Part shown: piece by piece, positions 22-59,035 of the stretch
Layout of the letters: the number at the start of each line of letters is the position of its first letter
Numbering within the stretch: position 1 is the stretch's first letter
Source: Balneolales bacterium
GTDB lineage: Bacteria; Bacteroidota; Rhodothermia; Balneolales; Natronogracilivirgulaceae
Length of the DNA: 64,000 nucleotides
NCBI GenBank assembly: GCA_007132975.1
Contig: SLNO01000016.1
Coordinates: 1,600-65,599, forward strand
Reading direction: 5' to 3'
Made by a program: the position numbers and the translations under genes
The notes under the pieces: model-generated
What the model was told of the DNA's origin: nothing
The model's database searches: none
What the model saw: only the letters and a program-made list of their open reading frames with translations

Positions 22-639
22 TTAATCATTGAGCAACTCCCTGACGGCTTCCTTCATTTGGCCATATTCGAGATAACCGGGCGCATAGAACCGGATATTG
101 CGTTCACGGTCGAGGAAGTAGGTGGTCGGTATGACACTGAGCGGACCGTAATTCTCCTGGACACGGCCGTCATCGACAGGCGTCGGGAAATTCACACCGA
201 ACGACTCCGCAAATTCAGCGACTTTGCGACGGGCCCCGTTCTCGTCCAGCGACACCCCGATGACCTGCAAACCGCGCTCGCCGAACTCCTCCTGGAGCCG
301 GATCAGCGCAGGCACCTCGTCGCGGCATGGCGGACACCAGGTGGCCCACAGATTCAGCAAAACGATCTGTCCATCGAAATCACTCAGACGGATGGATTCG
401 CCCGTGATGTCCTCCAGCTCAAAATCCGGACCCTGGTAGGCAATTGTGGCCGGAAACAGCTCTGCCGGACGCCAGGTGGGGGCATCGGCCATCCTGTAAT
501 CTTCAGGGTCATCCCGCAACGATTCCGCCGGAGTCGCCATCCACCAGAAAACCAGCACAGCGGCGGCCAGCACGGCTGCGGCCATCCAAATCGCTCTTTT
601 TTTGTCCATAATAGCGCGTATTTTACGTCGGCGCGGCAA
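22..639 (-). CDS. TlpA/ResA-family thiol:disulfide oxidoreductase (thioredoxin fold) with N-terminal membrane anchor
   Basis: 205-aa ORF. Hydrophobic anchor AIWMAAAVLAAAVLVFWW is followed by the thioredoxin-fold CxxC motif in LLNLWATWCPPCRDEVPAL. Confidence 0.85.
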   Translation of the reverse strand: MPRRRKIRAIMDKKRAIWMAAAVLAAAVLVFWWMATPAESLRDDPEDYRMADAPTWRPAELFPATIAYQGPDFELEDITGESIRLSDFDGQIVLLNLWATWCPPCRDEVPALIRLQEEFGERGLQVIGVSLDENGARRKVAEFAESFGVNFPTPVDDGRVQENYGPLSVIPTTYFLDRERNIRFYAPGYLEYGQMKEAVRELLND

Positions 640-755
640 GTGTGCGCAAGCTCATCCGCGCCAATACAAGTATTTCAGGGCGGATGGGTACGGCGGCACT
701 GACCGCTCATCCGTCAGCCCCATTTCCATGATACAAATACCCGTAAACAATCGGT

Positions 756-1406
756 ATGCTTGAAGTCCGGGATCTTGTCAGGTTCATCGAGGGCCGGTCC
801 ATCTGGCCGGACCTCTCCTTCTCGCTGCGGCCGGGCGAGCGGGTGGCGTTGCGCGGACCGTCGGGGTCCGGCAAAACGCTGCTCATGCGTGCTCTTGTGG
901 GGCTGGATGCGGTTGACGGCGGCGATATCCGGTTCCGTGACCGCGCACTGGCCGACTGGGACATCCCCGAATACCGGCGGCTGGTGCGGTACATCCCCCA
1001 GGATGCCGCCTTCCTCTCCGGCACCGTGCGGCAGAGCATCGAGCTGTTTTTCTCGTTCCGCGCCAATCGCGATCTGCAGCCGGACAATCGCGAACTTGCG
1101 CGCTTCCTGGATATCCTGCGCCTGCCGGAGACATTTCTCGACAAGACCGCCGATTTCCTGTCAGGCGGGGAAAAGCAGATGGTGGCGGTGATGCGGTCGC
1201 TGCTGCTCAAGCCGGAGATCCTGCTGCTGGACGAGCCCACATCCAACCTCGACGAAGCAATGGTCGGGCGGGTGGAATCGCTCATTGAGGACTGGATGGA
1301 TGGGGACCGGCAGCGGTGTTTCGTCTGGACCAGCCACGATTCCCGTCAGCTTGACCGGCTCACCGAGCGGTCGATCGAGCTGCGGCCGCATCCAACAGAA
1401 GTGTGA
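756..1406 (+). CDS. fetA: ABC transporter ATP-binding protein, FetA/YbbL-like
   Basis: 216 aa with Walker A GPSGSGKT, ABC signature LSGGEKQ and Walker B LLLDEPT. A UPF0014/FetB-type permease follows directly. Confidence 0.8.
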   Translation: MLEVRDLVRFIEGRSIWPDLSFSLRPGERVALRGPSGSGKTLLMRALVGLDAVDGGDIRFRDRALADWDIPEYRRLVRYIPQDAAFLSGTVRQSIELFFSFRANRDLQPDNRELARFLDILRLPETFLDKTADFLSGGEKQMVAVMRSLLLKPEILLLDEPTSNLDEAMVGRVESLIEDWMDGDRQRCFVWTSHDSRQLDRLTERSIELRPHPTEV

Positions 1407-29867: not shown

Positions 29868-31301
29868 TCACTGCCCGGCCGGCAGGCGGACCAGCGGATC
29901 CGGATATTCAAAGACAAAGAGCCTTTGCAGTTCATCACTGACAAGATAGATACGGTCAAGAGAGCGAATGATCGCAATTCCTTCAAGGTCTGGCCAACCG
30001 GCGTCAAAGGCAGCTAGCGGGCGCCCGGTGCGGTCCAGCACAAAAACAGCCCGCGCCTCGTCACTGACCAGCCAAAGAATGTCGTCGATTTCATCAAAGA
30101 ACAGACCCGACAGATCAAGTCCGCGCGCATCTTCGGGGGCGCCAAGGTCCATGTACGTACGCCTTATCTCCTGCCGTTCAGATCCGCGCAGTACATCCAG
30201 CTCGAGCAGCACACGCGGGTTCTTCTCGTTGACGACGAAGATATGGTTTGTGGATGGATCGATCGTGATACCCTCCAGGCCGTCGTTCTCTCTGCGGACT
30301 TCCACATCCACCGGAAAACGGGCAATTTCATTGCCGAGTGTATCAAATTGCACGATCTGCCTGAGCTTTTCCTCCACAACGAACAGGGACAGGTTCACGG
30401 GGTGTTGCGTTATGCCTTCCATATCATCGCCGCGCACCCGCAATCTGTCAACTATCCGCCCTCGCAGGTCAATTTTGTAAATACTGCCACCGGGATCGTC
30501 ACTTATGGTCCAGAAATACCTGCCGGTGTGGTCGACAGCCAGGCCGGACGGGTCGCTTATGTTGAGCTGGTACGATTCAATGAGCGTCAGGGACTGGAGC
30601 CGACTTGGCTCTCCGGGTGTGGGTTCGTTCATCGGGACAAGAAATCCACGGTGGTCCCATCCAAAATCGTAACGACCCAGCGAGATGTCGTATGCCACAT
30701 CTTCGGAGCGGTAAGAGAGCGTATCCACAATCGGTTTGCCGGAGGCTTCAGGCCCGTACAGGCCAATTTTCCCGCCTTCTATCGGCAGCACAAACGGCAG
30801 ATGGATGGCTTCGCCGGGGTGCTGCTGTCCTCCTGCCCAGAGCAGCAGATAGCCACGCGGCGGTATGGTGGTCTGATCCGGCAGCGTGCCGAATCGCAGG
30901 TCCTGCATCGAATACTCCACGGCGGTGCTGTTGGATGCCGGCCGAAAGCCTACCACCCATCCGGAGAGGTCCACCGTGTTGTTCTCGCGGTTGTGCAGCT
31001 CAATCCACCCGCTGTAAGCGTTGAAATCAGGGTCGGCCAGGGTCTCCTGCTGACGTACCATCACCTCGCTGATGACGACATCGCGCTGCTGAAACGCTGG
31101 CTGGGACGGCGAGTCTCCACTATTACTGTCATCATCTGATCCATTCCCCTCTTCCTGGTCGTTTTCCCGGGTATCGTTGATTGCGTCAGCACTTTCAGAA
31201 TGATTGCCGTCCGGACCGGTGACAGGATCCGAACAAGCAACTAGCAGTGAAAACAAGATCAAATATATCAATGGTATGCCGGAATAGGGATTGGAAATCA
31301 T
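29868..31301 (-). CDS. lamin-tail-domain (LTD) plus SdiA-regulated/phytase-like beta-propeller protein, lipoprotein
   Basis: Lipobox LLVACS. LTD pattern VVISEVMV...SGWIELHNRENNTVDLSGWVV...PPRGYLLLWAGG. C-terminal repeats with LEGIT/MEGIT motifs, as in SdiA-regulated domains. Confidence 0.7.
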   Translation of the reverse strand: MISNPYSGIPLIYLILFSLLVACSDPVTGPDGNHSESADAINDTRENDQEEGNGSDDDSNSGDSPSQPAFQQRDVVISEVMVRQQETLADPDFNAYSGWIELHNRENNTVDLSGWVVGFRPASNSTAVEYSMQDLRFGTLPDQTTIPPRGYLLLWAGGQQHPGEAIHLPFVLPIEGGKIGLYGPEASGKPIVDTLSYRSEDVAYDISLGRYDFGWDHRGFLVPMNEPTPGEPSRLQSLTLIESYQLNISDPSGLAVDHTGRYFWTISDDPGGSIYKIDLRGRIVDRLRVRGDDMEGITQHPVNLSLFVVEEKLRQIVQFDTLGNEIARFPVDVEVRRENDGLEGITIDPSTNHIFVVNEKNPRVLLELDVLRGSERQEIRRTYMDLGAPEDARGLDLSGLFFDEIDDILWLVSDEARAVFVLDRTGRPLAAFDAGWPDLEGIAIIRSLDRIYLVSDELQRLFVFEYPDPLVRLPAGQ

Positions 31302-31429
31302 GAGTGAAATGGGAAATACAAAAAAACTACTTGATTTTAAGCAATTGTATTCTTTACATTTGCTGATTATACACTGTTATTTCGTTAGAATAACCGGACT
31401 GTAAAATACAAAATAGATAAGTATAAAGA

Positions 31430-31516
31430 ATGACGATGTTCCACCATTTCTGCATTGTAACCATGATGTGTTGTATGCCTGGCATTGCTGATGGTGGTGG
31501 TCTCTCCGTGACTTAG
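31430..31516 (+). CDS. candidate Cys/Met-rich leader peptide (28 codons) of the cysI operon
   Basis: My own translation; it falls below the ORF-track cutoff. The peptide is MTMFHHFCIVTMMCCMPGIADGGGLSVT*, with 3 Cys and 5 Met. The inverted repeat CCACCAT/ATGGTGG brackets the Cys/Met codons. Confidence 0.5.
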   Translation: MTMFHHFCIVTMMCCMPGIADGGGLSVT

Positions 31517-31544
31517 TCACACACGTTATAGTGTTTGAATTTAG

Positions 31545-31580
31545 AAGCCCGCTGCCATCCTGGTTGCGGGCTTTTTTTTT
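31545..31580 (+). terminator. intrinsic terminator (attenuator candidate) upstream of cysI
   Basis: AAGCCCGCTGCCATCCTGGTTGCGGGC followed by T9. There is no upstream plus-strand gene for it to terminate. Confidence 0.75.
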
Positions 31581-31751
31581 GTCCGCCGCCAGCCCTGAAT
31601 GCGGCACTGACAAAACCGACCCGATGAATACAACTGCAGATGGACATGGTGATATTTGAATCAGATCGGCATGCAGTTTAACGGATTACAGATATCAACG
31701 GACAACAACCAAACTGACAATAAAAAAGCAACAACCAAACAGACTACACCA

Positions 31752-33440
31752 ATGACAAAAAAAAGCAGCAAGGTGGAACTGATCAAAGAGGAGAGCGGTA
31801 ATCTCCGGGGGGATCTGGCCACGCAACTTCACAACGGTCAAAACTATTTCGACAAGAACGCAATACAGATCCTGAAATTTCATGGTATTTACCAGCAGGA
31901 TGACCGGGATCTGCGTCGTATCAAAGGTCGGGACAAAGAGTGGAGTTTCATGATACGCAGCCGCATTCCCGGCGGTGGATTAACGGCCACGCAATATCTG
32001 GCCCATGACCGGCTGGCCGATACATACGCAAATGGAACCATTCGCCTGACAACCCGCCAGACAATCCAGTTCCATGGAGTGGTCAGGGGTGACCTTTCAT
32101 CCACGCTCCGGGAACTGCATGATGAGATGATCATTGCCCTTGGCGCTTGTGGCGACATTGTCCGCAATGTGATGTGCTGCCCGGCGCCGGCTGGATCCAG
32201 GACAGACCACGTCATTCAGGAGTATGCACAAAAGCTTTCCGACCATCTGCTCCCGCGCAGCAAGGCTTATTACGAAATATGGATCGACGGGGAAAAAGCC
32301 GGGTCCAGCCAGCAGAACGACCCTGAGCATGAACCGCTGTACGGGAAAAACTACCTCCCCCGCAAATTCAAGATCGGTATTGCCTGGCCCGGTGACAACT
32401 GTGTCGACGTTTTCACGCACGATATCGGACTGGTTGCCACAATAAATGACCATGACGAACTGCAGGGCTTCACCATTCTTGTTGGCGGAGGCATGGGCAT
32501 GAACCACAAGAAGAAAGAGACCTTCCCGCGCCTGGCCGACCCCCTTGCCTGGGTGCCGCATGAGGAGGTCATCGATGTGGTGACGCACATTGTGGCGATA
32601 CAGCGGGATTACGGCGACCGGGAAAACAGGAAGCATGCCCGATTCAAATACCTGATTGATGAGTGGGGCATCCCGAAGTTCAAAAAGGAACTGGAGGATA
32701 GGCTCGGTTACCGCCTTGCACCACCTCTTGACCTCGGCGACATGCGTCCGGAACTGCACCTTGGCTGGAACCGCCAGGCTGACGGACGCTGGTATCTGGG
32801 AATATCCGTGGAAAACGGACGCATCAAGGATACGCCGGAAATCCGGCTCAAGACCGGTCTGCGGGAGATCATCAGGCGATTCGGGACGGATGTCCGGCTC
32901 ACTCCCAACCAGGACATCCTACTGACAAACATTTCAGAGGAAGATCAGCATGCCATTGAGCAGATGATCCGCGAACACAACATACCGCACGATTACACGC
33001 TCAGCAATGCCCGGAGATACTCAATGGCCTGCCCTGCCCTGCCCACTTGCGGTTTGGCAGTTGCCGAGTCGGAGCGGGTCTTTCCAGGGATCATCCGCGA
33101 ACTGGAACAGGTCCTGGAGGAGTTGGGTCTGGACAAGGAAGTCATCACATTCCGGATGACCGGCTGCCCGAACGGATGCGCGCGCCCCTACGTGGCCGAT
33201 ATCGGGTTCGTGGGACACTCCATGAATAAATATGACATTTTCATCGGCGGTGACCCTGCCGGAAGAAGGCTCAACAGCCTGTATCGCGGGCTTGTACCGC
33301 TGGAGGAACTGGTTGAAACCGTGAAAACCCTTCTGGTTCAGTATCAAAATGAAAGGTACGAAGGCGAAAAATTCGGTGACTACGTCGCCCGTGTCAACCT
33401 TGTTGACGAAACCAACCAGATTAGCGAGGCAGGCTCATGA
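31752..33440 (+). CDS. cysI: assimilatory sulfite reductase hemoprotein (CysI/Sir type)
   Basis: N-terminus MTKKSSKVELIKEESGNLRG matches the CysI start pattern as I recall it. Siroheme/4Fe-4S cysteines MACPALPTCGLA and MTGCPNGCARP. The track ORF starts at a TTG at 31656. Confidence 0.92.
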   Translation: MTKKSSKVELIKEESGNLRGDLATQLHNGQNYFDKNAIQILKFHGIYQQDDRDLRRIKGRDKEWSFMIRSRIPGGGLTATQYLAHDRLADTYANGTIRLTTRQTIQFHGVVRGDLSSTLRELHDEMIIALGACGDIVRNVMCCPAPAGSRTDHVIQEYAQKLSDHLLPRSKAYYEIWIDGEKAGSSQQNDPEHEPLYGKNYLPRKFKIGIAWPGDNCVDVFTHDIGLVATINDHDELQGFTILVGGGMGMNHKKKETFPRLADPLAWVPHEEVIDVVTHIVAIQRDYGDRENRKHARFKYLIDEWGIPKFKKELEDRLGYRLAPPLDLGDMRPELHLGWNRQADGRWYLGISVENGRIKDTPEIRLKTGLREIIRRFGTDVRLTPNQDILLTNISEEDQHAIEQMIREHNIPHDYTLSNARRYSMACPALPTCGLAVAESERVFPGIIRELEQVLEELGLDKEVITFRMTGCPNGCARPYVADIGFVGHSMNKYDIFIGGDPAGRRLNSLYRGLVPLEELVETVKTLLVQYQNERYEGEKFGDYVARVNLVDETNQISEAGS

Positions 33441-34435
33441 TCCACAAAATAGATGCTCGCACCCATCCTAATTCCGCGGACAGATCCATTGAATCGCCGG
33501 GCGGGCTGCAAACGGTCACCTTGACATTCAAAAAGAACAAACCTGCGCCGGGCACGGTATACATTGCAGGTGCAGGTCCGGGCGATCCGGAACTGATGAC
33601 GGTCAAAGCCATGCGGGTGCTGCAGTCGGCCGATGTGGTTGTTTTCGACCGGCTGGTTAATCCGTTGCTTTTGAATGAGATTCGTCCCGATGCACGGAAA
33701 ATCAGTGTCGGCAAGAAACCCGGCAGAGCCTCGGTTTCACAAACCGAGATCAACCGGATACTGGTAACGGAAGCCCGCATGGGGCAGACCGTGCTTCGGC
33801 TGAAAGGCGGCGATCCGTTTGTCTTCGGCCGGGGCGGCGAGGAGTGCCTTGAACTTGCCGCGGAGGGCATCCCATTCGAAGTAATACCAGGAATCAGCAG
33901 CGTGACGGGTGCCACCGCCTATGCCGGAATCCCCCTTACTATGCGCAACCTGGCCACCGGCTTCAGTGTAATAAGTGGCCATCTGCATCCAGACAGCCCG
34001 GAATACGACTGGCAGGCGCTCTCTCAAACCCCGACCCTGGTTATCCTGATGGGAGCTCGCAACCTGAACCTCATCATCGATCGGCTCACGATCCACGGTA
34101 AAGACGGCGATACGCCCATTGCACTGATACACGAAGGTACCACGGCTCGGCAGCAGGTTACGACCGGCAGACTGTCGGATATCCACACGAAGTGTTCTGA
34201 AGTGCGTTCCCCTGTGCTGATTGTCATCGGCGAAGTGGTCCGTTTTCGTGAAGAAATAGCCTGGTTCCAGCCGGGAACGATTACCGAAGATATCCGCGAT
34301 GCTCCGGAAGCCAGTTACCCGAAACAGGTCAAGGCCACGGTTGATGCCGCTGTTCAGGCACGGGCCGTATCCTCAGCTCAGGCGAAGTCCATCCATCCAA
34401 CTAAACACACCTCAAAAACTGCAGCATCCCCATGA
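33437..34435 (+). CDS. cobA: uroporphyrinogen-III C-methyltransferase (SUMT) with C-terminal extension
   Basis: VYIAGAGPGDPELMTVKAMRVLQSADVVVFDRLV and RLKGGDPFVFGRGGEE. Its ATG overlaps the cysI stop (ATGA at 33437-33440). Confidence 0.92.
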   Translation: MIHKIDARTHPNSADRSIESPGGLQTVTLTFKKNKPAPGTVYIAGAGPGDPELMTVKAMRVLQSADVVVFDRLVNPLLLNEIRPDARKISVGKKPGRASVSQTEINRILVTEARMGQTVLRLKGGDPFVFGRGGEECLELAAEGIPFEVIPGISSVTGATAYAGIPLTMRNLATGFSVISGHLHPDSPEYDWQALSQTPTLVILMGARNLNLIIDRLTIHGKDGDTPIALIHEGTTARQQVTTGRLSDIHTKCSEVRSPVLIVIGEVVRFREEIAWFQPGTITEDIRDAPEASYPKQVKATVDAAVQARAVSSAQAKSIHPTKHTSKTAASP

Positions 34436-34547
34436 AAAAAGTTCATGAAGTGCCACGAACACGGTCGCATCCCTCTGGCACACATGGGAATGATCACATC
34501 CTGCCAAGTGAAACCACTCTAACCAAAAAATTCAAAGTTTTAAATTC

Positions 34548-35261
34548 ATGCAATTGAACGACCGGCTGATCAGCAATCTCAACGATGAATACAAGGGCAG
34601 CGACCCGGCGCGGATCTTGGAATGGGCCGTCAAAACATTCGGTGAAGACGCGGTTTTGTCCACCGGATTCGGGGCCTCGGGCATTGTCCTGATGCACCAG
34701 CTGTCGATCGTGCGTCCGGGCGCACCGGTGTTTTATCTGGATACGGACCTCCTTTTCGACGAAACCTATGAGCTGATCGAACGGATCCGGGAGCGCCTGG
34801 ATATCCGGCTGTTCCGTGTCAGTCCAGAACACACCCTCGATCAGCAGACTGCGGAATTCGGTGAAAATCTGTGGGAAACCCGGCCCGACCAGTGCTGCCA
34901 TATCCGCAAAGTGCTGCCCTTGAAGAAGTTCCTCAGCGACCGCAAAGCGTGGATCACTGCCATCCGCAGGGACCAGTCCGCAACACGAAAAAACACCCCG
35001 ATTTTTCAACAGGATCACTGGCTGGATGTTCTCAAGGTGTGTCCGCTGGCCGGCTGGACCGAGGACAAGATATGGGACTATCTGAACGTCAACCGACTTC
35101 CTTACAACGAGCTGCACGACCGGGGCTACCCGAGCATCGGATGCCGGCCCTGTACCCGTCCGGCAGCAACCAACGGGGACCTTCGTGCCGGAAGATGGTC
35201 GGGCACGGCCAAGACAGAGTGCGGTCTTCACAATCGAATCATTCAACCCACGGATCAATGA
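34548..35261 (+). CDS. cysH: (phospho)adenylylsulfate reductase, Fe-S cluster (APS-reductase-like) type
   Basis: Contains the C-terminal catalytic KTECGLH motif. Also carries the cluster cysteines CC (PDQCCHIRKVLPL) and CxxC (SIGCRPCT). Confidence 0.9.
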   Translation: MQLNDRLISNLNDEYKGSDPARILEWAVKTFGEDAVLSTGFGASGIVLMHQLSIVRPGAPVFYLDTDLLFDETYELIERIRERLDIRLFRVSPEHTLDQQTAEFGENLWETRPDQCCHIRKVLPLKKFLSDRKAWITAIRRDQSATRKNTPIFQQDHWLDVLKVCPLAGWTEDKIWDYLNVNRLPYNELHDRGYPSIGCRPCTRPAATNGDLRAGRWSGTAKTECGLHNRIIQPTDQ

Positions 35262-35947
35262 CATTCTACCCGGTATATCTCACTCGCCTGGACCGGAAGA
35301 CAGTAGTACTCCTCGGAGGCAACCATGAAGCGGAGCGAAAAGCCGTTGAACTCCTCTCATTCGGCGCCAAAGTGCATCTCATCAGCCCGCGGATTACCCT
35401 TGCGCTCAGACAGCTCCATGAGCAGGGAAAATTCCGTTGGACTCCAAGGGAATACCGCTACGGGGATCTGGTGGATGCCGGTTTTGCCGTGGCGGCCGAC
35501 TATTCTCCGGAGACGGCGCGGGAATTTGCCAGGGAGGCGGAAGACCGCAACATTCTGGTGAACGTCATGGACAACATGCCGCTGTCCGATTCGGCCTTCG
35601 GCTCCGTTGTGCGGCAGGGCAAACTGACCGTTTCATTTTCGACCGGCGGTCTGGCACCCGCCCTGGCAGTCCGGCTGAAGGAACGGTTTGAGCGTGAGCT
35701 GGACGATGCCTACGGCCGGTTCCTGGACCTGGCCGGCATGCTGCGTCCGGCCATCATGGAGCACATCGAAGACGGGGAACTGCGTAAAAAGAAGTGGTAT
35801 GAATGGGTGGATTCCGGAACCATTTCAGCGCTTCGCGAAGGCGACGAGCAGCAGGCCATGGCTATCACTGCGGATATCTGGGGGGACGAGGTCATGCAAC
35901 GGGCAGGAATCCCGGCCGCGAAATACAGCTCCGGGCATTCCTTGTAA
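35258..35947 (+). CDS. precorrin-2 dehydrogenase / sirohydrochlorin ferrochelatase (CysG N-terminal domain / SirC-Met8 type)
   Basis: 229 aa starting MTFYPVYLTRLDRKTVVLLGGNHEAERK, with NILVNVMD and LTVSFSTGGLAPALAVRLK. Its ATG overlaps the cysH stop (ATGA at 35258-35261). The first 129 codons of the track ORF (34871-) are an out-of-frame overlap with cysH. Confidence 0.8.
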   Translation: MTFYPVYLTRLDRKTVVLLGGNHEAERKAVELLSFGAKVHLISPRITLALRQLHEQGKFRWTPREYRYGDLVDAGFAVAADYSPETAREFAREAEDRNILVNVMDNMPLSDSAFGSVVRQGKLTVSFSTGGLAPALAVRLKERFERELDDAYGRFLDLAGMLRPAIMEHIEDGELRKKKWYEWVDSGTISALREGDEQQAMAITADIWGDEVMQRAGIPAAKYSSGHSL

Positions 35948-36005: not shown

Positions 36006-37394
36006 TCAGCGGTGCCATTTCCATCTGATGCCGGACCATACCCCAAGCACCATGGCCAGAGTGAATACCCAACCCGACAAGGCAAATGCTGAAATGCCTG
36101 ACAGTGTAGTCCCAATGGTGCATCCCAGGGAGATCATAGCCCCTAAACCCAACAGTACGCCGCCGGCAAAACCCTTCAGCGCTTTCGTGGCGGTCAGCCG
36201 ACTGAGCCTGAACCGGCCGGAAAGCAAAGCGGCAATCAGGGAGCCGGCTACCAGAGCAACTACGAATATCCCGTTGCCAGTCAGCACTTCAGGAGCTGCG
36301 GCGGTGCTGCACCCTGCAAATCCATCCAGTCCCTCCAGCCGGTCGGGCAGCAGATCGAACCGGTTGCCGAGTTGCCGGGAATAACGGCCCAGTTCGGCAG
36401 TTACACCGAGCGGTTCCACACGCAGATAGGCGATCATGGACAGCAGCCCGACCACAACCCCGCCGACCCACGTCGGCCAAAGCTCCACAAAAACCCGGCT
36501 CCACACACTGGAAAGTGACAACGTGCCACTGTCTGGCGAAACAGGCTGACCGCCCCCGGAATATGACGGGTCACTGCAATCCGCAAATGCCGATGATTTT
36601 TGAGTAGATGGATGCTCAGATTGCTTTGAAGCCAAATCCGACTGGGTGGGTGCATCGTCAAAATGGGTGGATGCGGCCGATGTCTGGCCAGTTGCCGCAG
36701 TAGCCTGCCCGAATGCCGCCGGATCACAGCCTGTATCGCCGGACGGTTTTGCTTCCGGATCCGGCCGGAACCGGATCAGAAGCCACAGCTTGAGTGATAG
36801 CAGCACTGCCAGTTGTACCAGGGTCCATACGGCATAGCCGCCATACTCCGGCAGCCATATGACCGGTGAGGTGGAAATGGTCGCGACATAGAGCCGGTTC
36901 CAGACCATGAACCCCAGAATGAAGCCGGCCGCAGACCCGGCCAGGGCAAACGGTGCAACGCTGTACCCCTCGCCAAGCCGGTAGAGGTGTGCGCTGATGC
37001 ACGATCCGGAAAGCGCCATCCCCCACCCGAACAGCAAACCGCCAAGGAGCAAATGCCAGCTTACAGGTCCAATGTGCGCATCCTGGGGCAGATATCCAGC
37101 TGACGGATCGGCAATCCAGTTTCCAAAAAGCACGACATAACCGATACTCCCAACAAGCAGTGCTGCTAACAGCCCGGCTGCCGGCCTGCCATCGCCAAAT
37201 TCAAACAGATCGCGCAACACACAAAAAAAGCAGAACCGGGATCTTTGCAGCACCAGTCCGAAAAGGGCACCCGTCACAATCAGGAACGGAGCTCTTGAGC
37301 CATGCTGCCCGCTGCTGCCGGCAAGGTACCAGAAACCGACAAGCAGCAAGAGCATGGTGGCAGCGCCGATATGGCGCCATATTGAAACATTCAT
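36006..37394 (-). CDS. fused double YeeE/YedE-family sulfur-compound (thiosulfate-type) permease
   Basis: Two YeeE/YedE halves, with GWGMALSGSCISAH in the first and GLGAMISLGCTIG in the second. They are joined by a ~110-aa low-complexity linker. Confidence 0.8.
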   Translation of the reverse strand: MNVSIWRHIGAATMLLLLVGFWYLAGSSGQHGSRAPFLIVTGALFGLVLQRSRFCFFCVLRDLFEFGDGRPAAGLLAALLVGSIGYVVLFGNWIADPSAGYLPQDAHIGPVSWHLLLGGLLFGWGMALSGSCISAHLYRLGEGYSVAPFALAGSAAGFILGFMVWNRLYVATISTSPVIWLPEYGGYAVWTLVQLAVLLSLKLWLLIRFRPDPEAKPSGDTGCDPAAFGQATAATGQTSAASTHFDDAPTQSDLASKQSEHPSTQKSSAFADCSDPSYSGGGQPVSPDSGTLSLSSVWSRVFVELWPTWVGGVVVGLLSMIAYLRVEPLGVTAELGRYSRQLGNRFDLLPDRLEGLDGFAGCSTAAAPEVLTGNGIFVVALVAGSLIAALLSGRFRLSRLTATKALKGFAGGVLLGLGAMISLGCTIGTTLSGISAFALSGWVFTLAMVLGVWSGIRWKWHR

Positions 37395-37415
37395 GAATCA
37401 GTCCGGATTTTGCGA

Positions 37416-38330
37416 TTATTTACCGGTCCAGACCGTTCCCGCGGGATTGTCGATAGGAACGCCCACTGCGTTGCCGTATTCCGTCCACGATCCGTCGTAG
37501 TTCCTTGTTTCGTATCCCAGAAGGAAGTGAAGGGCGAACCAGGTGTGGCTGGACCGCTCCCCGATCCGGCAGTAGGTAATCACCGGCTTGCTGCCGTCGA
37601 TACCCTTTTCGGCATAGATCTTCCGTATCTGCTCCCTTGGCAGGAACGTGCCATCCTGCGGATTGACGATTTCACCCCAGGGCACATTAACGGCACCGGG
37701 TATGTGACCGGCCCTGATGGCCAGCTCCTGGATCCCCTCCGGAGCAATCACACGTCCCTCGTACTCCGCTCTCGAACGGATGTCAATGAGCGCGCCGGGT
37801 TGATCCTCCTTGACCACGGCAAGCACATCCTGAAGATTGGCACGAAGATGATCGTTGATCTGTGTGACGCGGTAGTCGGTGCGGGTGTAAGACGCCGGTC
37901 GCGAACTGAGTGGCCGGCGCTCGCGCTCCCACTTATCGCGGCCTCCATCCAGGATTTTGATGTTATCATGTCCGTAGATGGTGAAGACCCAGGCACCCCA
38001 GGCAGCAAACCAGTTGTTGTGGTCGCCGTACAGGACAACGGTGGTCTCATTGGAAATGCCGCTTCCGGACAACAGTTCCGCGAATTTTTCCGGTGAAACA
38101 ATATCGCGGCGAACCGGATCCACAAGGTCCGTATGCCAGCGGAAGTTGACTGCGCCGGGAATGTGCCCGCGTTCGAACTTTCCGGGCTCCACACTTACTT
38201 CTACAAACCTGACATCCGGGTTGTTGAGGTTCTGGGCCGCCCAATCCGTGGATACGACCGGCTCTGATGGCCGGGCCTGAATGTTCACGGCAAATAGGAG
38301 AGCGATAATGAGTATGCTGTATTTTTTCAT
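37416..38330 (-). CDS. exported tandem-rhodanese thiosulfate sulfurtransferase
   Basis: Signal peptide MKKYSILIIALLFAVNIQA, two rhodanese domains, and active-site loop YCRIGERSSHTW. Confidence 0.88.
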   Translation of the reverse strand: MKKYSILIIALLFAVNIQARPSEPVVSTDWAAQNLNNPDVRFVEVSVEPGKFERGHIPGAVNFRWHTDLVDPVRRDIVSPEKFAELLSGSGISNETTVVLYGDHNNWFAAWGAWVFTIYGHDNIKILDGGRDKWERERRPLSSRPASYTRTDYRVTQINDHLRANLQDVLAVVKEDQPGALIDIRSRAEYEGRVIAPEGIQELAIRAGHIPGAVNVPWGEIVNPQDGTFLPREQIRKIYAEKGIDGSKPVITYCRIGERSSHTWFALHFLLGYETRNYDGSWTEYGNAVGVPIDNPAGTVWTGK

Positions 38331-38484
38331 CTGTTTTTTTCTGGTTGGTTGTTGTTTCTATTTGTTGATTGGTTGGTTGCTTGTGATTCTTGTTTTGTCT
38401 GATGTTGCCAAACATTTTTGTTGGCGAGTGGTTTGTTGGTGATTGATTGAAATTGTTTCAAGGAGCTGCCGATATCCTCTCCGA

Positions 38485-40428
38485 TCAGATGTTATCTTTG
38501 AAAACCCGCTTCATGATCTGCGCGACGGCCTCATCCACCCCGATCCTGTCGGTTTTGATGGACAACGTCTCCGGGCCGGACAACTCGTATTCGGCATCGT
38601 AGCCGGTCAGTGACTTTATTTTCCCCTCCCTGGCTTTGCGGTAAAGTCCCTTGGGGTCACGCTGTTGACGCGTTTCCGGATCGCAGTGCAGATGGACCTC
38701 GGTGAACGCTCCGTCCGGGAACAGCGATGCGGCACGACTCCGGTCCCTGCGGTTCGGCGAGACGAACGAGCAGATCACCACATTTCCGTGCTCGTAAAAC
38801 AGCCGGGCCACTTCCGCTGCCCTTCGAATGTTTTCGGTGCGGTCGGCAGTTGAGAAACCGAGATCGCCGTTGAGGCCGTGCCGAACCTGGTCCCCGTCCA
38901 GCAGCATGGTCTTGATGCCGGCATCCCAGAGCTTCCGCTCAAGCGCCCGTCCGATGGTCGTTTTTCCGGCGCCGGATACCCCGGTCAGCCAGATCACCCG
39001 GGCGCGATGTCCGTTCCTTTTTTCGCGCTCTTCACGCCCGATGTTCCACGGATCCCAGAAAGTATTCGGACTTTTGATTGCGGATTCCGCCGATTGCGCG
39101 CTGTCCCGCTTCGCCGCCGTTTCAGCCCGGATCATTCCCGCCGCCGCCGTCACATTGGTCTCCGGATCCACCAGGATGAAACTGCCTGTGGCGCTGTTTT
39201 TCCTGTAAGGGTCCACAAAAACGGGCCGCGCCGTCTCAATGCTGATCCGGCCGATTTCGTTGAGTGCCAGCGTGGAGGCCGGGTCGCGGCTCAGCGAATC
39301 CACATCGATGCGATGGTGGACCGCCCTGACGACTGCCGCGGTGGTGTTCGTGGTGTGCATGAGCACGTAGTTGCGGCCAATCTGCAGGGCGGTGCCGTTC
39401 ATCCAGCACAGATCGGCCTCAAACCGGGTTGTCACGGCGGGTGGATGGTGGCCGTGCACGATCATGTCGCCGCGGCTCAGATCCATCTCGTCGCCAAGGC
39501 GCAGGATCACCGAATCTCCGGTAGAAGCCTGGCCGACCGGCCCATCGGGCGTATCAATGGCTTTGATGGTGGTTTTCTGGCCCGCCGGCAGCAGCATGAC
39601 CTCATCATTCCGTTGCACGCTGCCCGATACCACCCTGCCGGCAAAACCGCGATAGTCCTGATCGGGACGTATGACATACTGCACCGGGAAACGGAATCCG
39701 CCCTGTGTTTTACGTGCATCCACCCGGACATGCTCCAGATGGTGCAGCAGCGTGGGTCCGTCGTACCACGGCATCGACTCCGAACTGTTGACGATATTGT
39801 CCCCCTTGAGAGCGGATATGGGGATGCTGGTGACTTCCTCCACATCCAGATGCTTCGAAAATGTGCGAAATTCCTCCACAATCTCTTCAAAACGATCACG
39901 GGAATAATCCACAAGGTCCATTTTGTTCACTGCAAGGACCAGCCGGGGGATTTGCAGCAGGGAGGATATGAACGCGTGACGGCGGCTTTGGGTGAGCACG
40001 CCCTTGCGCGCATCGATCAGGATGATGGCCAGATCGGCTGTGGAAGCCCCGGTGACCATGTTGCGGGTGTACTGCTCGTGGCCGGGTGTGTCGGCAATGA
40101 TGAATTTCCGCCTGGGGGTTGCGAAATAGCGGTAAGCCACGTCAATGGTAATCCCCTGCTCCCTTTCCGCCCGAAGTCCGTCGGTGAGAAGCGCCAGGTT
40201 GACCGCCTCGCCGCGATTGACGGCCGTCTGCTCAAGTGCATCCAGCTGATCCTCGAATATGGATTTACTGTCGAACAGAAGCCGGCCAATAAGGGTGCTT
40301 TTGCCGTCATCCACGCTGCCCGCCGTGGTAAAACGGAGCAGGTCCATGGTTTCGCCGGCGGTTTTCTCTTCCGGGTGGATGAGGCCGTCCTGCGGTGCCT
40401 CTGTTGTGCTGTTCTTTGTACTGCTCAC
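38485..40428 (-). CDS. cysNC: bifunctional sulfate adenylyltransferase subunit 1 / adenylylsulfate kinase (CysN-CysC fusion)
   Basis: GTPase motifs GSVDDGKST, DTPGH and NKMD. C-terminal APS kinase P-loop WLTGVSGAGKTT. The track start is a GTG. Confidence 0.93.
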   Translation of the reverse strand: MSSTKNSTTEAPQDGLIHPEEKTAGETMDLLRFTTAGSVDDGKSTLIGRLLFDSKSIFEDQLDALEQTAVNRGEAVNLALLTDGLRAEREQGITIDVAYRYFATPRRKFIIADTPGHEQYTRNMVTGASTADLAIILIDARKGVLTQSRRHAFISSLLQIPRLVLAVNKMDLVDYSRDRFEEIVEEFRTFSKHLDVEEVTSIPISALKGDNIVNSSESMPWYDGPTLLHHLEHVRVDARKTQGGFRFPVQYVIRPDQDYRGFAGRVVSGSVQRNDEVMLLPAGQKTTIKAIDTPDGPVGQASTGDSVILRLGDEMDLSRGDMIVHGHHPPAVTTRFEADLCWMNGTALQIGRNYVLMHTTNTTAAVVRAVHHRIDVDSLSRDPASTLALNEIGRISIETARPVFVDPYRKNSATGSFILVDPETNVTAAAGMIRAETAAKRDSAQSAESAIKSPNTFWDPWNIGREEREKRNGHRARVIWLTGVSGAGKTTIGRALERKLWDAGIKTMLLDGDQVRHGLNGDLGFSTADRTENIRRAAEVARLFYEHGNVVICSFVSPNRRDRSRAASLFPDGAFTEVHLHCDPETRQQRDPKGLYRKAREGKIKSLTGYDAEYELSGPETLSIKTDRIGVDEAVAQIMKRVFKDNI

Positions 40429-40508
40429 TTTTTATCTGGTGTCTTTAGTAGCTGTTTTTGTCTGGATGCCAATCGAGGTGTCTCCCCGGCTTAAAAACAG
40501 GTTCGGAT

Positions 40509-41495
40509 TCAAAAATACCCGGCCTTTTTCCGGTCTTCCATGGCCGCTTCCGATCTTTTGTCATCGTGGCGGTTGCCCCTCTCGGTCACGCGCGCAGCAG
40601 CGACTTCGGCAATGATCTCATCCAGACTGGATGCCACGGAAAGCACGGCCCCTGTGCAGGTTACGTCGCCAATGGTCCGGAAACGGACGATCTTCTCCTC
40701 AGGTTTTTCATCCGGATAGCGGTTGATGAACCCGGAGTCGTCCAGCCATGTGCCCCGCCTGTTGAAGACACGCCGCCTGTGGGAGAAGTAAAGTGATGGT
40801 ATGGGAATCCGCTCGGCGGCAATGTACTGCCAGATATCCATCTCGGTCCAGTTGCTCAGCGGGAACACACGGAAATGCTCGCCCGGGTTCTTTCGTCCGT
40901 TGAAAAGACTCCACAGTTCCGGACGCTGGTTCTTGGGATCCCACTGCCCGAAAGCGTCACGGTGCGAGAAAAAGCGTTCCTTTGCCCGGGCTTTTTCCTC
41001 GTCACGTCGCCCACCGCCCAGTGCGCAGTCCACGTTGTGCTCCTTGAGTGCGTCCAACAGGGTAACCGTCTGCAGGGCGTTGCGGCTGGCCTCCGGACCT
41101 GTCTCCTCCCGCACTTGTCCCCTGTCAATGCTCTCCTGCACGTGAGCCACAATGAGTCGGGCTCCGGTCCTTTCAGCCAGATCGTCCCGGAAGCGGATGG
41201 TTTCGGGGAAATTGTGCCCGGTATCGATGTGCAGCAGTGGAAACGGAAACGGGGCGGGACGAAATGCCTTGAGGGCCAGGTGTACCATCACGATGGAATC
41301 TTTTCCACCGGAAAATAGCAGGACGGGACGTTCAAACTGGGCAGCCACTTCACGCAGCACAAAAATGGCCTCTTCTTCAAGAATGCCAAGGTGTACCGAT
41401 TTTCCCGGGTTGCATCCATCATCCGCAATTTGAGTCGGCCCGAATTGTGTTTTGATCCGGGAAGCGTGCTCAGTCTCAAGCAGTTGCAGTGTCAT
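40509..41495 (-). CDS. cysD: sulfate adenylyltransferase subunit 2
   Basis: PP-loop LLFSGGKDSIVMVHLALKAF. IDTGHNFPE and the remaining sequence resemble CysD. Confidence 0.93.
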   Translation of the reverse strand: MTLQLLETEHASRIKTQFGPTQIADDGCNPGKSVHLGILEEEAIFVLREVAAQFERPVLLFSGGKDSIVMVHLALKAFRPAPFPFPLLHIDTGHNFPETIRFRDDLAERTGARLIVAHVQESIDRGQVREETGPEASRNALQTVTLLDALKEHNVDCALGGGRRDEEKARAKERFFSHRDAFGQWDPKNQRPELWSLFNGRKNPGEHFRVFPLSNWTEMDIWQYIAAERIPIPSLYFSHRRRVFNRRGTWLDDSGFINRYPDEKPEEKIVRFRTIGDVTCTGAVLSVASSLDEIIAEVAAARVTERGNRHDDKRSEAAMEDRKKAGYF

Positions 41496-41613
41496 GTCTG
41501 TTGGTGTTGTTGATTATTGGTGTCTGTATCTGTTATCAGTGGCCATTTCTTTGGGGATGCGTTGCAGGCATGACCCAAATGTTGGCAAACCGATTCGTTG
41601 GTTGAAATTCTGT

Positions 41614-43164
41614 TCATGTCCAGAACCACGCTGCCACGGTTACGGTTACAGTCATGAGGATCAGGGTAACCGGCAGTCCGGCTTTCAGATAGTCGGTGTA
41701 GCGGTACCCGCCGGGTTCCATGACCATCAGGTTGGTCTGATAGCCCACCGGCGACAGAAAGCTGGCCGATGCGGCTACGGCAACAGTCACCCCCACCGCG
41801 TGCGGATCCAGACCGATGGCGGTGGTCGCATGCAGCGCCACCGGCAGCATCAGCACGGCAGCGGCATTGTTTGTGATCAGCTCGGTGAGCAGGTTGGTCG
41901 CCAGGTAGAGTCCGGCCAGCACCGCCAGCACCCCCCAGCGCGACGATTGTTCAAGCAGCAGAGCAGCCGCAGCGGATGCCAGTCCGGTGTTCTCAAGTGC
42001 GGCCCCGATACCGAGCGCTGCCGCAATGACGATCAGCACAGACAAATGGATGGATGGGAGGATACGGGACAATGGCAGCATGCCGGTCGCGATCAAAATG
42101 GCGGCCGTCGCTACAACAGCCATATGGATGGGCGCAATGCCGGTTACCGATATGCCGACCATGGCAATGACCATGGTAAATGTCCATGCCCTGGCTTTTC
42201 TGCCCGGAATCCTGGCGCTGGCTTCATCCTGCACCACTGAGTGCTTTTCAATTTCTGGATTGCCGGCCTGACCGGCATTGTATCCCCCATTGTTCACCCA
42301 TGATACTGGTGGATGCAGCTCCCAGTGGTTAATCCTGCCGTAGCTGCCGGCCCCGGCATATACACCGCTGGGAAATGACGCCGAAACCCCGGGTCCCGAT
42401 CCGGCTGAGGAGTAATCGCCAGTAATTCCGGCTAATGCCAAACTTTCCGGGAGAAGGTAGACACCGGCCGGCACGGCACGCTTGCCAGAATCCGCCCGTT
42501 TTTCAGGATTCGGACCGATCGCAACTGCCGGTGCATCTCCCTTTCTGTCCGGCAACAGGCGGTGCCCGATGAGGGAAAACCAGACCACGACCAGAATGGC
42601 TGCCGGAACGCCCACAAGCGCCAGCTGGAAAAAGTGAAACGGCACATGCCCCCTGTCGGCGAGCATTTCCGATACGATCAGGTTGGTTGATGTACCAAAC
42701 AGTGTAATTACACCCCCGACAATCGCTGCATAGGAGAGTGGAATAAGCAGTTTGGAGGCGGAAATTCCATATTTTCCGGCCCATTGCTGCAACTGCGGGA
42801 ATAGGATGGCGACGATCGGGGTGTTGTTCAGGATGGACGACATGGCCGCGGTGGATCCCATCACCCGGAACAAGACCGAACCGGTTGAGGATGAACCTGG
42901 ACGGTAGAACCGATCGAGGAATGAAAGCAGTCGTACGTGCTGCACGCTTCCGGCAACCAGGAACAGCGCCCCTACCGTAATGACTACCGTGCTCGTGAAA
43001 CCGGCAGCCACATCCACCAGAGAAATGATACCCGGAACAAGCAGCAGGAACAGAGCCGAAACGAACAGCACAGCCGGTCGGGCGGCATTGCCAACCAGTG
43101 CGGCGATCAAGGCCAGGATGATTCCCAGGGCATATAAAGATTTCCAGTCCAGTATGTCGTGCAT
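41614..43164 (-). CDS. SLC13/DASS-family permease (probable sodium:sulfate symporter)
   Basis: 516-aa polytopic protein with a two-fold repeat architecture. A central low-complexity loop occupies the position where many homologues carry TrkA-C domains. It is the first gene of the cysD-cysNC operon. Confidence 0.75.
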   Translation of the reverse strand: MHDILDWKSLYALGIILALIAALVGNAARPAVLFVSALFLLLVPGIISLVDVAAGFTSTVVITVGALFLVAGSVQHVRLLSFLDRFYRPGSSSTGSVLFRVMGSTAAMSSILNNTPIVAILFPQLQQWAGKYGISASKLLIPLSYAAIVGGVITLFGTSTNLIVSEMLADRGHVPFHFFQLALVGVPAAILVVVWFSLIGHRLLPDRKGDAPAVAIGPNPEKRADSGKRAVPAGVYLLPESLALAGITGDYSSAGSGPGVSASFPSGVYAGAGSYGRINHWELHPPVSWVNNGGYNAGQAGNPEIEKHSVVQDEASARIPGRKARAWTFTMVIAMVGISVTGIAPIHMAVVATAAILIATGMLPLSRILPSIHLSVLIVIAAALGIGAALENTGLASAAAALLLEQSSRWGVLAVLAGLYLATNLLTELITNNAAAVLMLPVALHATTAIGLDPHAVGVTVAVAASASFLSPVGYQTNLMVMEPGGYRYTDYLKAGLPVTLILMTVTVTVAAWFWT

Positions 43165-43211: not shown

Positions 43212-43249
43212 AAAAAAAAAGCCCGCTACCAGAACGGCAGCGGGCTTTT
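43212..43249 (-). terminator. intrinsic terminator (attenuator candidate) upstream of the SLC13-cysD-cysNC operon
   Basis: The minus strand reads AAGCCCGCTGCCGTTCTGGTAGCGGGC followed by T9. It is 33/36 identical to the terminator at 31545-31580. Confidence 0.75.
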
Positions 43250-43273: not shown

Positions 43274-43363
43274 TCAGTTCATACAACAACCACTGCCGGA
43301 CGGTACAGGCATAGCACAGCACATACAGAAATTGCAGCTATGAACGGCAGTTGTGGTTGTCAT
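43274..43363 (-). CDS. candidate Cys/Met-rich leader peptide (29 codons) of the SLC13-cysD operon
   Basis: My own translation of the minus strand gives MTTTTAVHSCNFCMCCAMPVPSGSGCCMN*, with 6 Cys and 4 Met. The inverted repeat ACAACCACAACTGCCG / CGGCAGTGGTTGTTGT (14/16 bp) brackets the Cys/Met codons. Confidence 0.5.
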   Translation of the reverse strand: MTTTTAVHSCNFCMCCAMPVPSGSGCCMN

Positions 43364-58644: not shown

Positions 58645-59035
58645 AATGATTGTTTTTTTGTACAGTTCCTGATCCAGCGGCCGATTGTTCTGATTTGGTA
58701 TGTAATGTTGTCCACGGCCGCACCTTGCCATGCTACCACATTCAGGGCTTTTTCACAACTCAAATTTGACTATCGGCAGACGAATTTTTGATGAATTTCT
58801 GCACGGGCTCCAATCTGCAACCTGTCTGATTTCAGAACAAACATGTACAGTCGCAAAACGGTTTTTATGAAATTTCAGCAGATTTTATACAAAAAGCGCT
58901 TCCAAAGATATGGTTATTAATACCATTCTAGTGCCATTACCTTTTATTTTTAGGCCTTTTGTAGTTTTTGACATTTTATTTTATCCACAAAATCCCCCGG
59001 TTTTCACTTTTTTTATTTTTTGGAGGTTTTAACTG

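Follow-up and report, generated by a model that had tools for sequence, protein, structure and literature searches.

Two convergent operons that jointly encode assimilatory sulfate reduction lie in a 64,000-nucleotide (nt) stretch of DNA from a Balneolales bacterium (assembly GCA_007132975.1, contig SLNO01000016.1), the whole of which was analysed and is here called the window. Each operon is headed by a short leader unit, in which an open reading frame (ORF) rich in cysteine (Cys) and methionine (Met) codons runs towards an intrinsic terminator. The first of these units (unit 1), at 31430-31580 on the plus strand before the sulfite reductase gene cysI, had been interpreted in an earlier reading of the sequence (the original prediction) as a ribosome-mediated attenuator keyed on Cys and Met codons. 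Its features are as follows:

31430..31516, plus strand: leader ORF 1, 28 codons, encoding MTMFHHFCIVTMMCCMPGIADGGGLSVT, with its stop codon at 31514-31516
31451-53 and 31463-77, plus strand: proposed sensing codons, Cys8 and Met12-Met13-Cys14-Cys15-Met16 respectively
31441..31448, plus strand: region 1, CCACCAUU, which pairs with region 2 in minimum-free-energy folds and leaves the Cys/Met codons in the loop of that helix
31490..31500, plus strand: region 2, GAUGGUGGUGG, at codons 21-24 of the ORF, 13 nt short of its stop, and able to pair with region 1 or region 3
31549..31559, plus strand: region 3, CCGCUGCCAUC, in the 5' arm of the terminator and the antiterminator partner of region 2
31543..31580, plus strand: intrinsic terminator (regions 3:4), a stem with an inner CCA/UGG extension, followed by nine U

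Leader ORF 1 contains three Cys and five Met among its 28 codons (four Met if the start codon is left aside), and its Cys/Met codons are bracketed by a 7-bp inverted repeat, CCACCAT (31441-31447) and ATGGTGG (31491-31497), just as originally described. The terminator has arms AGCCCGC (31546-31552) and GCGGGCT (31566-31572) and a run of nine T at 31572-31580; here the original prediction was right about the hairpin and the T-run, but the arm begins 29 nt past the stop codon rather than 28 and the folded stem starts at 31543. Folding gave the hairpin a free energy of -21.6 kcal/mol (z = -5.1), with 0/200 shuffled sequences as stable. A consensus terminator scan of 31000-32000 skipped it because its outer loop is longer than 8 nt. 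The terminator has no upstream plus-strand gene to serve, as had been claimed: the 5' neighbour, encoding an SdiA-regulated/LTD-domain protein (29868-31301), is read from the minus strand, and no gene on the plus strand has its end there. The leader ORFs currently carry no annotation.

A promoter-like element can be read from the plus strand 5' of unit 1, consisting of TTGATT (31331-36), an 18-nt spacer and TACATTTG (31355-62), which would put the transcript start about 60 nt 5' of the leader ATG. Both motifs recur at equal distances in the related locus L001. The consensus scan of 31000-32000 did not call this element (8/12 matches) and gave no promoter.

The original prediction was also correct that the next plus-strand genes are cysI-cobA-cysH-sirC. 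Gene order is the same in relatives, and the spacer between terminator and cysI measures 171 nt:

31752..35947, plus strand: operon 1, the presumed target of unit 1
31752-33440, plus strand: cysI, with its true ATG at 31752 (protein P0001, 562 amino acids, 100% identical)
33437-34435, plus strand: cobA
34548-35261, plus strand: cysH
about 35261-35947, plus strand: sirC-like gene

The last ~50 nt 5' of the cysI start are ~85% A+C, with CAACAACC/CAGACAAC repeats and few G (window 31700-31751; L001 3935-3995; L114 90-189), and no Shine-Dalgarno-like sequence was found in this stretch at any of the three loci. It may be an unstructured translation-initiation region typical of the lineage.

The inverted repeat of the original prediction is real and forms the 1:2 helix, but the decisive antiterminator, GAUGGUGGUGG paired with CCGCUGCCAUC, had been overlooked. 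In the fold of the free leader (z -3.3 against shuffles), helix 1:2 encloses the Cys/Met codons and the terminator forms. For the stalled state, a ribosome was placed at the Cys codons and folding was restricted to the RNA on its 3' side as far as the terminator loop. In unit 1 this fold has a free energy of -25.4 kcal/mol (z about -3), region 2 pairs with region 3, and 13 of the 15 nt of the terminator arm are sequestered. A naive stall model, in which pairing was barred within the ribosome footprint only, left helix 1:2 closed around the ribosome, which is physically implausible, and was replaced.

A scan of both strands of the window (128 kb) for ATG-initiated ORFs of 8-60 amino acids with a CC pair and a terminator-like site within 80 nt gave three matches, two of which are unit 1 and a paralogous unit (unit 2) at 43363-43212 on the minus strand, heading the other sulfate-assimilation operon. 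The terminator of unit 2, AAGCCCGCTGCCGTTCTGGTAGCGGGC with nine T (43249..43212), is almost identical to that at 31545-31580, and a search for the terminator pattern matched exactly two places in the window, where 0 matches were expected. A scan of the window for short ORFs before terminators revealed no further leader-peptide attenuator. Unit 2 and its operon, permease-cysD-cysNC-rhodanese-yeeE, which is convergent with operon 1, are laid out as follows:

43274..43363, minus strand: leader ORF 2, 29 codons, encoding MTTTTAVHSCNFCMCCAMPVPSGSGCCMN, with its main sensing cluster at codons 10-18 (43336..43310)
43345..43361, minus strand: region 1', ACAACCACAACUGCCG, pairing with region 2' in the minimum-free-energy fold (z -2.96 against shuffles)
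43290..43298, minus strand: region 2', CGGCAGUGG, identified by folding
43243..43235, minus strand: region 3', CCGCUGCCG, within the terminator of unit 2
43212..43249, minus strand: terminator, AAGCCCGCUGCCGUUCUGGUAGCGGGC with nine U, identified by folding and pattern search
36006..43164, minus strand: operon 2, the presumed target of unit 2
41614-43164, minus strand: DASS/CitMHS-type anion permease gene
40509-41495, minus strand: cysD
38485-40428, minus strand: cysN/cysC fusion
37416-38330, minus strand: rhodanese/3-mercaptopyruvate-sulfurtransferase-like gene
36006-37394, minus strand: YeeE/YedE-type sulfur transporter gene

Because paralogous units head both operons, both halves of the pathway would answer to one signal. 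Leader 2 carries a second Cys-Cys-Met group (GCCMN before the stop, codons 25-29, 43276-43290 on the minus strand) that overlaps the 3' flank of region 2; the equivalent place in leader 1 is occupied by Gly codons (GGU GGU GGU in leader 1, GGU UGU UGU in leader 2). A ribosome that stalled there would sit over region 2, which would promote termination.

To place the units in a wider context, CysI-centred loci (numbered with the prefix L) were collected from genome, metagenome and assembly data. Upstream DNA was usable in 11 distinct Balneolales lineages, three of them cultured, and every one carries an in-frame Cys/Met-rich leader ORF and a terminator before cysI or rhodanese-cysI. These ORFs start with ATG, span 15-41 codons, contain a Cys/Met cluster and end 16-29 nt 5' of a strong intrinsic terminator. 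The original prediction had named conservation of the reading frame and of Cys/Met enrichment among relatives as its comparative check, and both are conserved in every one of these lineages:

L001: leader MTTSHLHICPAMPMCCMPGALNGGGLSVT
L002/L116: leader MTTHSITQTILMCCMLCGDRGGGLFRMLS
L117-119: leader MKFHTISNIMSIMSMCCMLRRDRGGGLHGMLS
L120/121: leader MKDLNLKNCPECCMCINTHPGRGRVCFAM
L122: leader MFNLKTTSSAALMCMCMMCMPCESKGSGPTVY
L123: C-terminal part of leader, ...ALMCMCMMCMPCESCGSGRTVF
L003/L034: two units in tandem (L003 3220-3599)
L035: two units in tandem (912-1334)
L124, cultured Rhodohalobacter sp. SW132: leader MNSQVLNLNIVMMCSPMAMMCCMCMHNDSGLK
L125, cultured Fodinibius salsisoli: C-terminal part of leader, ...VMPVAMCCMCMCCCMHMPGGSGTDMRK
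L126, cultured Gracilimonas mengyeensis: leader MKTQNYIQTTTAATEQAMNCCCMCMCMMCNTPTVVDVMC

In-frame ORFs homologous to leader ORF 1 occur in L001, L002/L116 and L117, and its M-C-C-M core is kept in L001, L002 and L117. Where a rhodanese gene heads the cysI operon, as at L035 and in the three cultured species, the unit sits before that gene. The tandem units found in two lineages would multiply the stringency of attenuation. Two loci, L114 (86% identical CysI) and L115, were left out because their contigs end 189 and 61 nt 5' of cysI; no leader was found in L036, a G+C-rich contig with 55% identical CysI. The contig of L114, the closest relative, starts exactly at the nine-T run after the terminator (1-10), so that the assembly probably broke at the hairpin.

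A covariance model built from 15 Balneolales units found no additional copies in 415 kb of loci: every match was either a training unit or the antisense image of a training unit's terminator. The terminator pattern had no match in viral contigs. A palindrome, GGAAGCGCTTCC or AAAAGCGCTTTT, lies 100-150 nt 5' of the leader ATG in several Balneolaceae (L122, L123, L124, L126 and L035); it could be a binding site for a transcription factor acting on the same promoters. It is absent near either window unit, the sole AAGCGCTT in the window being at 58894.

Beyond the Cys/Met cluster and the residues encoded by region 2, the leader peptides differ in length (15-41 amino acids) and in sequence, and their recurring G-G-G or G-S-G residues are there because the RNA motif of region 2 encodes them. 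We therefore consider it extremely unlikely that the ORF is a free-standing gene for a small protein, such as a Cys/Met-rich metal-binding or redox peptide or the precursor of a ribosomally synthesised and post-translationally modified peptide, that has its own terminator and merely adjoins the sulfur genes. Such a gene would be conserved as an ORF and would end before a strong terminator, as seen here, and Cys-rich peptides can be functional. Against it, units occur twice per genome before different sulfur operons and also as tandem duplicates, the 3' part of the ORF complements the terminator 5' arm in 15/15 units, and all eight leader peptides checked by exact sequence are absent from a collection of 15 billion proteins.

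Helices 2:3 and 3:4 are present in all 15 Balneolales units. The stalled-state fold contains the antiterminator in 15/15, with 7-17 nt of the terminator 5' arm sequestered. In a MAFFT alignment of the 15 units (A4), made without structural fitting, 92.5% of the 120 cells for the eight core 2:3 pairs are paired, with nine further pair types, against 29-69% in slid controls. The terminator helix covaries (0/500 shuffles reach its score). Since region 3 must fit both region 2 and region 4, we compared cognate with non-cognate duplexes of region 2 and the terminator arm: cognate duplexes are the more stable (-13.2 vs -12.0 kcal/mol, permutation p = 2.5e-4), as exemplified by GAUAGCGGG with CCCGCUAUC in L124 and GGUAGUGG with CCACUGCC in L123. 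Helix 1:2 beats shuffles in 11/14 units, both window units included. A first analysis confined to the five close homologues was underpowered (69/500 shuffles for pairs changed on both sides) and was widened to the 15 units.

Spacing across units also fits a ribosome footprint. With the last Cys codon 9-21 nt 5' of region 2, a ribosome stalled there does not occlude that region. As 7-19 nt separate the end of region 2 from the stop codon, a ribosome at the stop either lies over it or is positioned between it and region 3.

Codon usage was assessed in 16 units (481 leader codons, start codons excluded) against the 6149 codons of twelve window genes. Cys makes up 16.4% of leader codons and 0.7% of codons in window genes (23-fold), and Met 12.9% and 1.7% respectively (7.7-fold); no other amino acid is enriched more than 1.7-fold. 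Leaders use TGT and TGC in a ratio of 61:18, while window genes favour TGC (33:10), and the use of both codons in leaders means that Cys positions change synonymously. The remaining two frames across the leader stretches contain 40 and 26 stops. In 1.73 Mb of retrieved DNA, 8496 short ORFs were narrowed to 113 with a Cys/Met cluster and to 28 that also had a terminator within 60 nt; 27 of these 28 head sulfur-assimilation operons and the other is an antisense image of such a terminator. The leader unit is beyond chance occurrence.

Mutually exclusive helices and a terminator are also the layout of a riboswitch, and the free-leader fold is more stable than its shuffles. Even so, it is very unlikely that a ligand- or protein-binding RNA switch, responding to S-adenosylmethionine (SAM), Cys, O-acetylserine or an RNA-binding protein, drives the terminator while the ORF is coincidental. 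Every unit has an ATG, an open frame and an in-frame Cys/Met cluster where the other frames are rich in stops, Cys positions exchange TGT for TGC, and the sequence between helices varies freely around no conserved multi-helix aptamer. The Rfam 15 search took in the whole window plus ten related loci at gathering thresholds, and 31250-31800 at the looser cut-off of E <= 10. No family reached gathering level in the window or the ten loci, and sub-threshold matches were terminator-driven only: Trp_leader (RF00513) scored 21.8 bits against a gathering score of 41, on the terminator part only, and Thr_leader 15.1 against 55. SAM riboswitch and T-box models had no match in 31250-31800 even at E <= 10.

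The same search bears on the idea, compatible with attenuation, that the terminated transcript (roughly 150-210 nt) is primarily a trans-acting small RNA. The unit does resemble an orphan promoter-like element with a terminator, there are weak sub-threshold matches to small-RNA models, and attenuator RNAs can moonlight as small RNAs, as rnTrpL does (PMC7298713). All those matches, however, are terminator-driven and far below gathering scores, and in each lineage the unit is found strictly at the start of sulfur operons, which makes a primary role in trans highly improbable. No complementary target came to light, though no search was aimed at one.

Another reading keeps the ORF as a Cys sensor but gives it a translational or Rho-dependent output, with the hairpin acting as a constitutive partial terminator or an RNA-stability element. 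In its favour are the long spacer between terminator and cysI and the precedent of the sole experimentally studied Cys-rich upstream ORFs (uORFs), which act on translation (bioRxiv 10.1101/834739). We nonetheless hold this output to be highly unlikely: region 2 complements the 5' arm of the terminator and not the cysI start region, that A/C-rich start region has no pairing partner seen in the leader, and the terminator is strong, ends in a U7-U9 tract and co-varies with region 2 across units.

Conservation, the second unit and the alternative 1:2, 2:3 and 3:4 helices thus support the original reading, and we consider it likely, on comparative and structural grounds, that the unit is a ribosome-mediated (leader-peptide) transcription attenuator of sulfate-assimilation genes that reads charged tRNA-Cys and probably elongator tRNA-Met too. 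These sequence features, their conservation, pairing potentials, codon statistics and gene context were observed directly. From them we infer translation of the leader ORF, ribosome stalling, its coupling to RNA polymerase and regulation in vivo, including read-through that depends on Cys and Met.

Under this attenuator model, transcription would begin 5' of 31430 and a ribosome would translate the 28-codon leader. With Cys and Met ample, the ribosome would reach the stop at 31514, covering or passing region 2 and coming to sit between regions 2 and 3; behind a ribosome that has run through, region 2 could re-pair with region 1 (31441-48). Region 3 would then be free to pair with region 4, the hairpin with its U9 tract would form, and RNA polymerase would stop at about 31580, before cysI. 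With Cys-tRNA or Met-tRNA scarce, the ribosome would stall on Cys8 or on MMCCM (31451-77), in the 1:2 loop, and so keep region 1 from region 2. Left unpaired 18 nt beyond the last Cys codon, region 2 would capture region 3 once made, and the absence of the terminator would allow read-through into cysI-cobA-cysH-sirC. With no translation at all, 1:2 and 3:4 would both form, giving super-attenuation. Unit 2 (43363-43212, minus strand) would control permease-cysD-cysNC-rhodanese-yeeE likewise. The model predicts that a change of region 2 from GGUGGUGG to CCUCCUCC would give constitutive termination.

Several points weigh against this interpretation. The case for the mechanism is computational, and transcription-translation coupling in Balneolota is an assumption of the model. 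Covariation in the antiterminator is modest: one of eight pairs changed on both sides, 33/500 shuffles reach the score, and much of the 2:3 helix is conserved sequence with changes that G-U pairing tolerates. Helix 1:2 is no better than shuffles in 3/14 units and is missing from L003A, with L123, L035b and L003B also among the units in which it is absent or weak. Cys enrichment is partly built into the selection of ORFs, although Met played no part in it, and the alternation of ATG and TGT is also a low-complexity nucleotide pattern. Met codons could serve as internal start sites, or arise as a by-product of RNA-level constraints or of a TG-rich repeat, and their sensing is the least certain point of the model. 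Finally, the start codon of leader ORF 1 has no recognisable Shine-Dalgarno sequence. Such absence may be normal for the lineage, as is expected of Bacteroidota in general.

The unit shares its architecture with the classical attenuators (trp, his, leu, thr, ilvGMEDA and pheA of Enterobacteria, with predicted examples in other phyla): a leader ORF with codons for the end product, an intrinsic terminator, mutually exclusive 2:3 and 3:4 helices joined in most units by a competing 1:2 helix, and a region 2 neutralised by a ribosome that has moved past the sensing codons. Single leaders that read several amino acids are also familiar, from thr (Thr, Ile) and ilv (Leu, Val, Ile), much as Cys and Met would be read together here. 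By contrast with those systems, the proposed sensing codons specify Cys and Met, which fall outside the classical set, and they lie in the 1:2 loop and not within region 1; the ORF contains the whole of region 2; the operons concerned are cysI-cobA-cysH-sirC and permease-cysDNC; the host belongs to the Balneolota, in the Fibrobacteres-Chlorobi-Bacteroidetes (FCB) group; and there is no sequence similarity. S-box (SAM-I) riboswitches and the Cys T-boxes of Firmicutes likewise terminate transcription prematurely before cys/met genes in response to a sulfur amino-acid signal, but their sensor is a SAM aptamer or a leader that binds uncharged tRNA, with no translated ORF.

The original prediction knew of no such mechanism for sulfate-assimilation genes in FCB-group bacteria. 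Our search found none for the pathway or for the group either, but mycobacterial Cys uORFs and a Rhodobacterales cysS leader are precedents for parts of it. For actinobacterial cys operons, Seliverstov et al. (2005; PMC1262725) predicted leader peptides that contain Cys codons but have no terminator. In Mycobacterium smegmatis, polycysteine uORFs act on translation and not on termination, and uORF-mediated attenuation for cysteine was presented as not previously described (Canestrari et al., 2020; bioRxiv 10.1101/834739). As in the Balneolales units, consecutive Cys codons in short uORFs precede cysteine/sulfur genes and stalling is the signal. The mycobacterial ORFs differ, however, in having no intrinsic terminator, in acting by translational attenuation with polarity, through exposure of the following gene's Shine-Dalgarno sequence, in being leaderless and in carrying the Cys tract at their 3' end, whereas the units described here have a strong terminator and antiterminator, co-enriched Met and promoter-like motifs at least 60 nt 5' of the ATG.

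In Rhodobacterales, uORFC-8-2 before cysS is a predicted attenuator with a tandem-Cys uORF and a terminator stem with a U-run (Brewer et al., 2021; PMC8632094). Its tandem Cys falls at about codons 14-15, the same codons as in leader ORF 1, which is a resemblance only. It controls the gene for Cys-tRNA synthetase in alpha-proteobacteria, has two Cys codons with no Met enrichment reported, and stands as a prediction; gene context and taxon set it apart from the Balneolales units, and no homology is detectable through Rfam 15. We found no account in open full-text literature of sulfate-assimilation genes preceded by a Cys/Met leader and an intrinsic terminator, nor of any such arrangement in Bacteroidota/Balneolota, although most subscription journals lay outside this search and novelty is therefore unproven. 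What appears new here is a known classical mechanism with a new sensed amino-acid pair, a new target pathway and a new phylum.

Outside the 11 Balneolales lineages, Cys-rich short ORFs with terminators precede cysH-cysI in L006 (2911-3029, a Pirellulaceae genome) and L071 (1482-1656), and cysI in the metagenome contigs L037 (2147-2297), L038 (2116-2295), L045 (2342-2457) and L073 (2247-2418). Examples of their peptides are MCMCCICCCACAFACEKVTLCTCGNV and ...NCACCCCCTPP..., and in the stalled state 6-12 nt of the terminator 5' arm pair upstream. As the Balneolales covariance model does not recognise these six units, they look analogous and not homologous; they suggest that the principle is more widespread.

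Other Cys-rich ORFs were also seen in the retrieved loci. Fodinibius salsisoli has a third kind of unit (L125 1609..1421, minus strand) before a PALP-family (cysteine-synthase-like) gene (1381..434), divergent from its rhodanese-cysI leader. The ORF ends in ...LCKYTSCTCCCCCCS and the stop, with six consecutive Cys and no Met enrichment; its terminator-like hairpin is weaker (-13.6 kcal/mol) and the stalled-ribosome fold lacks a clear antiterminator. Twelve G+C-rich metagenome contigs (L064, L081, L087, L088, L090-L093, L096, L097, L104 and L107) carry, ~100 nt 5' of cysI, a conserved ORF ending in ...LTRRRAIDYxRCASCFC[SR] (e.g. L092 2278-2367), with three Cys in the last seven codons and no terminator, resembling the terminator-less actinobacterial type. 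A 16-amino-acid ORF, M[CY]SIKC[CW]SM..., before cysI in Ferruginibacter/Chitinophagaceae (L008-L032, e.g. L017 3483-3533) was rejected as the out-of-frame 3' end of a cysJ-like gene (...RYEKDVY at its terminus).

Textbook ribosome-mediated attenuation covers trp, his, leu, thr, ilv and phe, and the sulfur amino acids are thought to be handled by transcription factors (CysB, CymR), SAM riboswitches and T-boxes. Whether joint Cys/Met leader attenuation is a general, overlooked control of assimilatory sulfate reduction, with one homologous family in Balneolales and independent analogues before cysH-cysI or cysI in other phyla, seems to us an evenly balanced question. If it is, Cys and Met would join the classical attenuators as members so far missing from that set, and tight transcription-translation coupling would be implied in these FCB-group bacteria.

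The attenuator described here would, if it operates as modelled, provide a natural Cys/Met-responsive part for synthetic biology, and its signature, a Cys/Met cluster followed by a terminator whose 5' arm is mirrored in the ORF, could be used to annotate sulfur regulons in metagenomes. For the Balneolales themselves, in a phylum whose regulation is barely known, it would mean that the two halves of sulfate assimilation are switched together at transcription termination by a single codon-level sensor of Cys and Met, a proposal that can be tested in the three cultured species.

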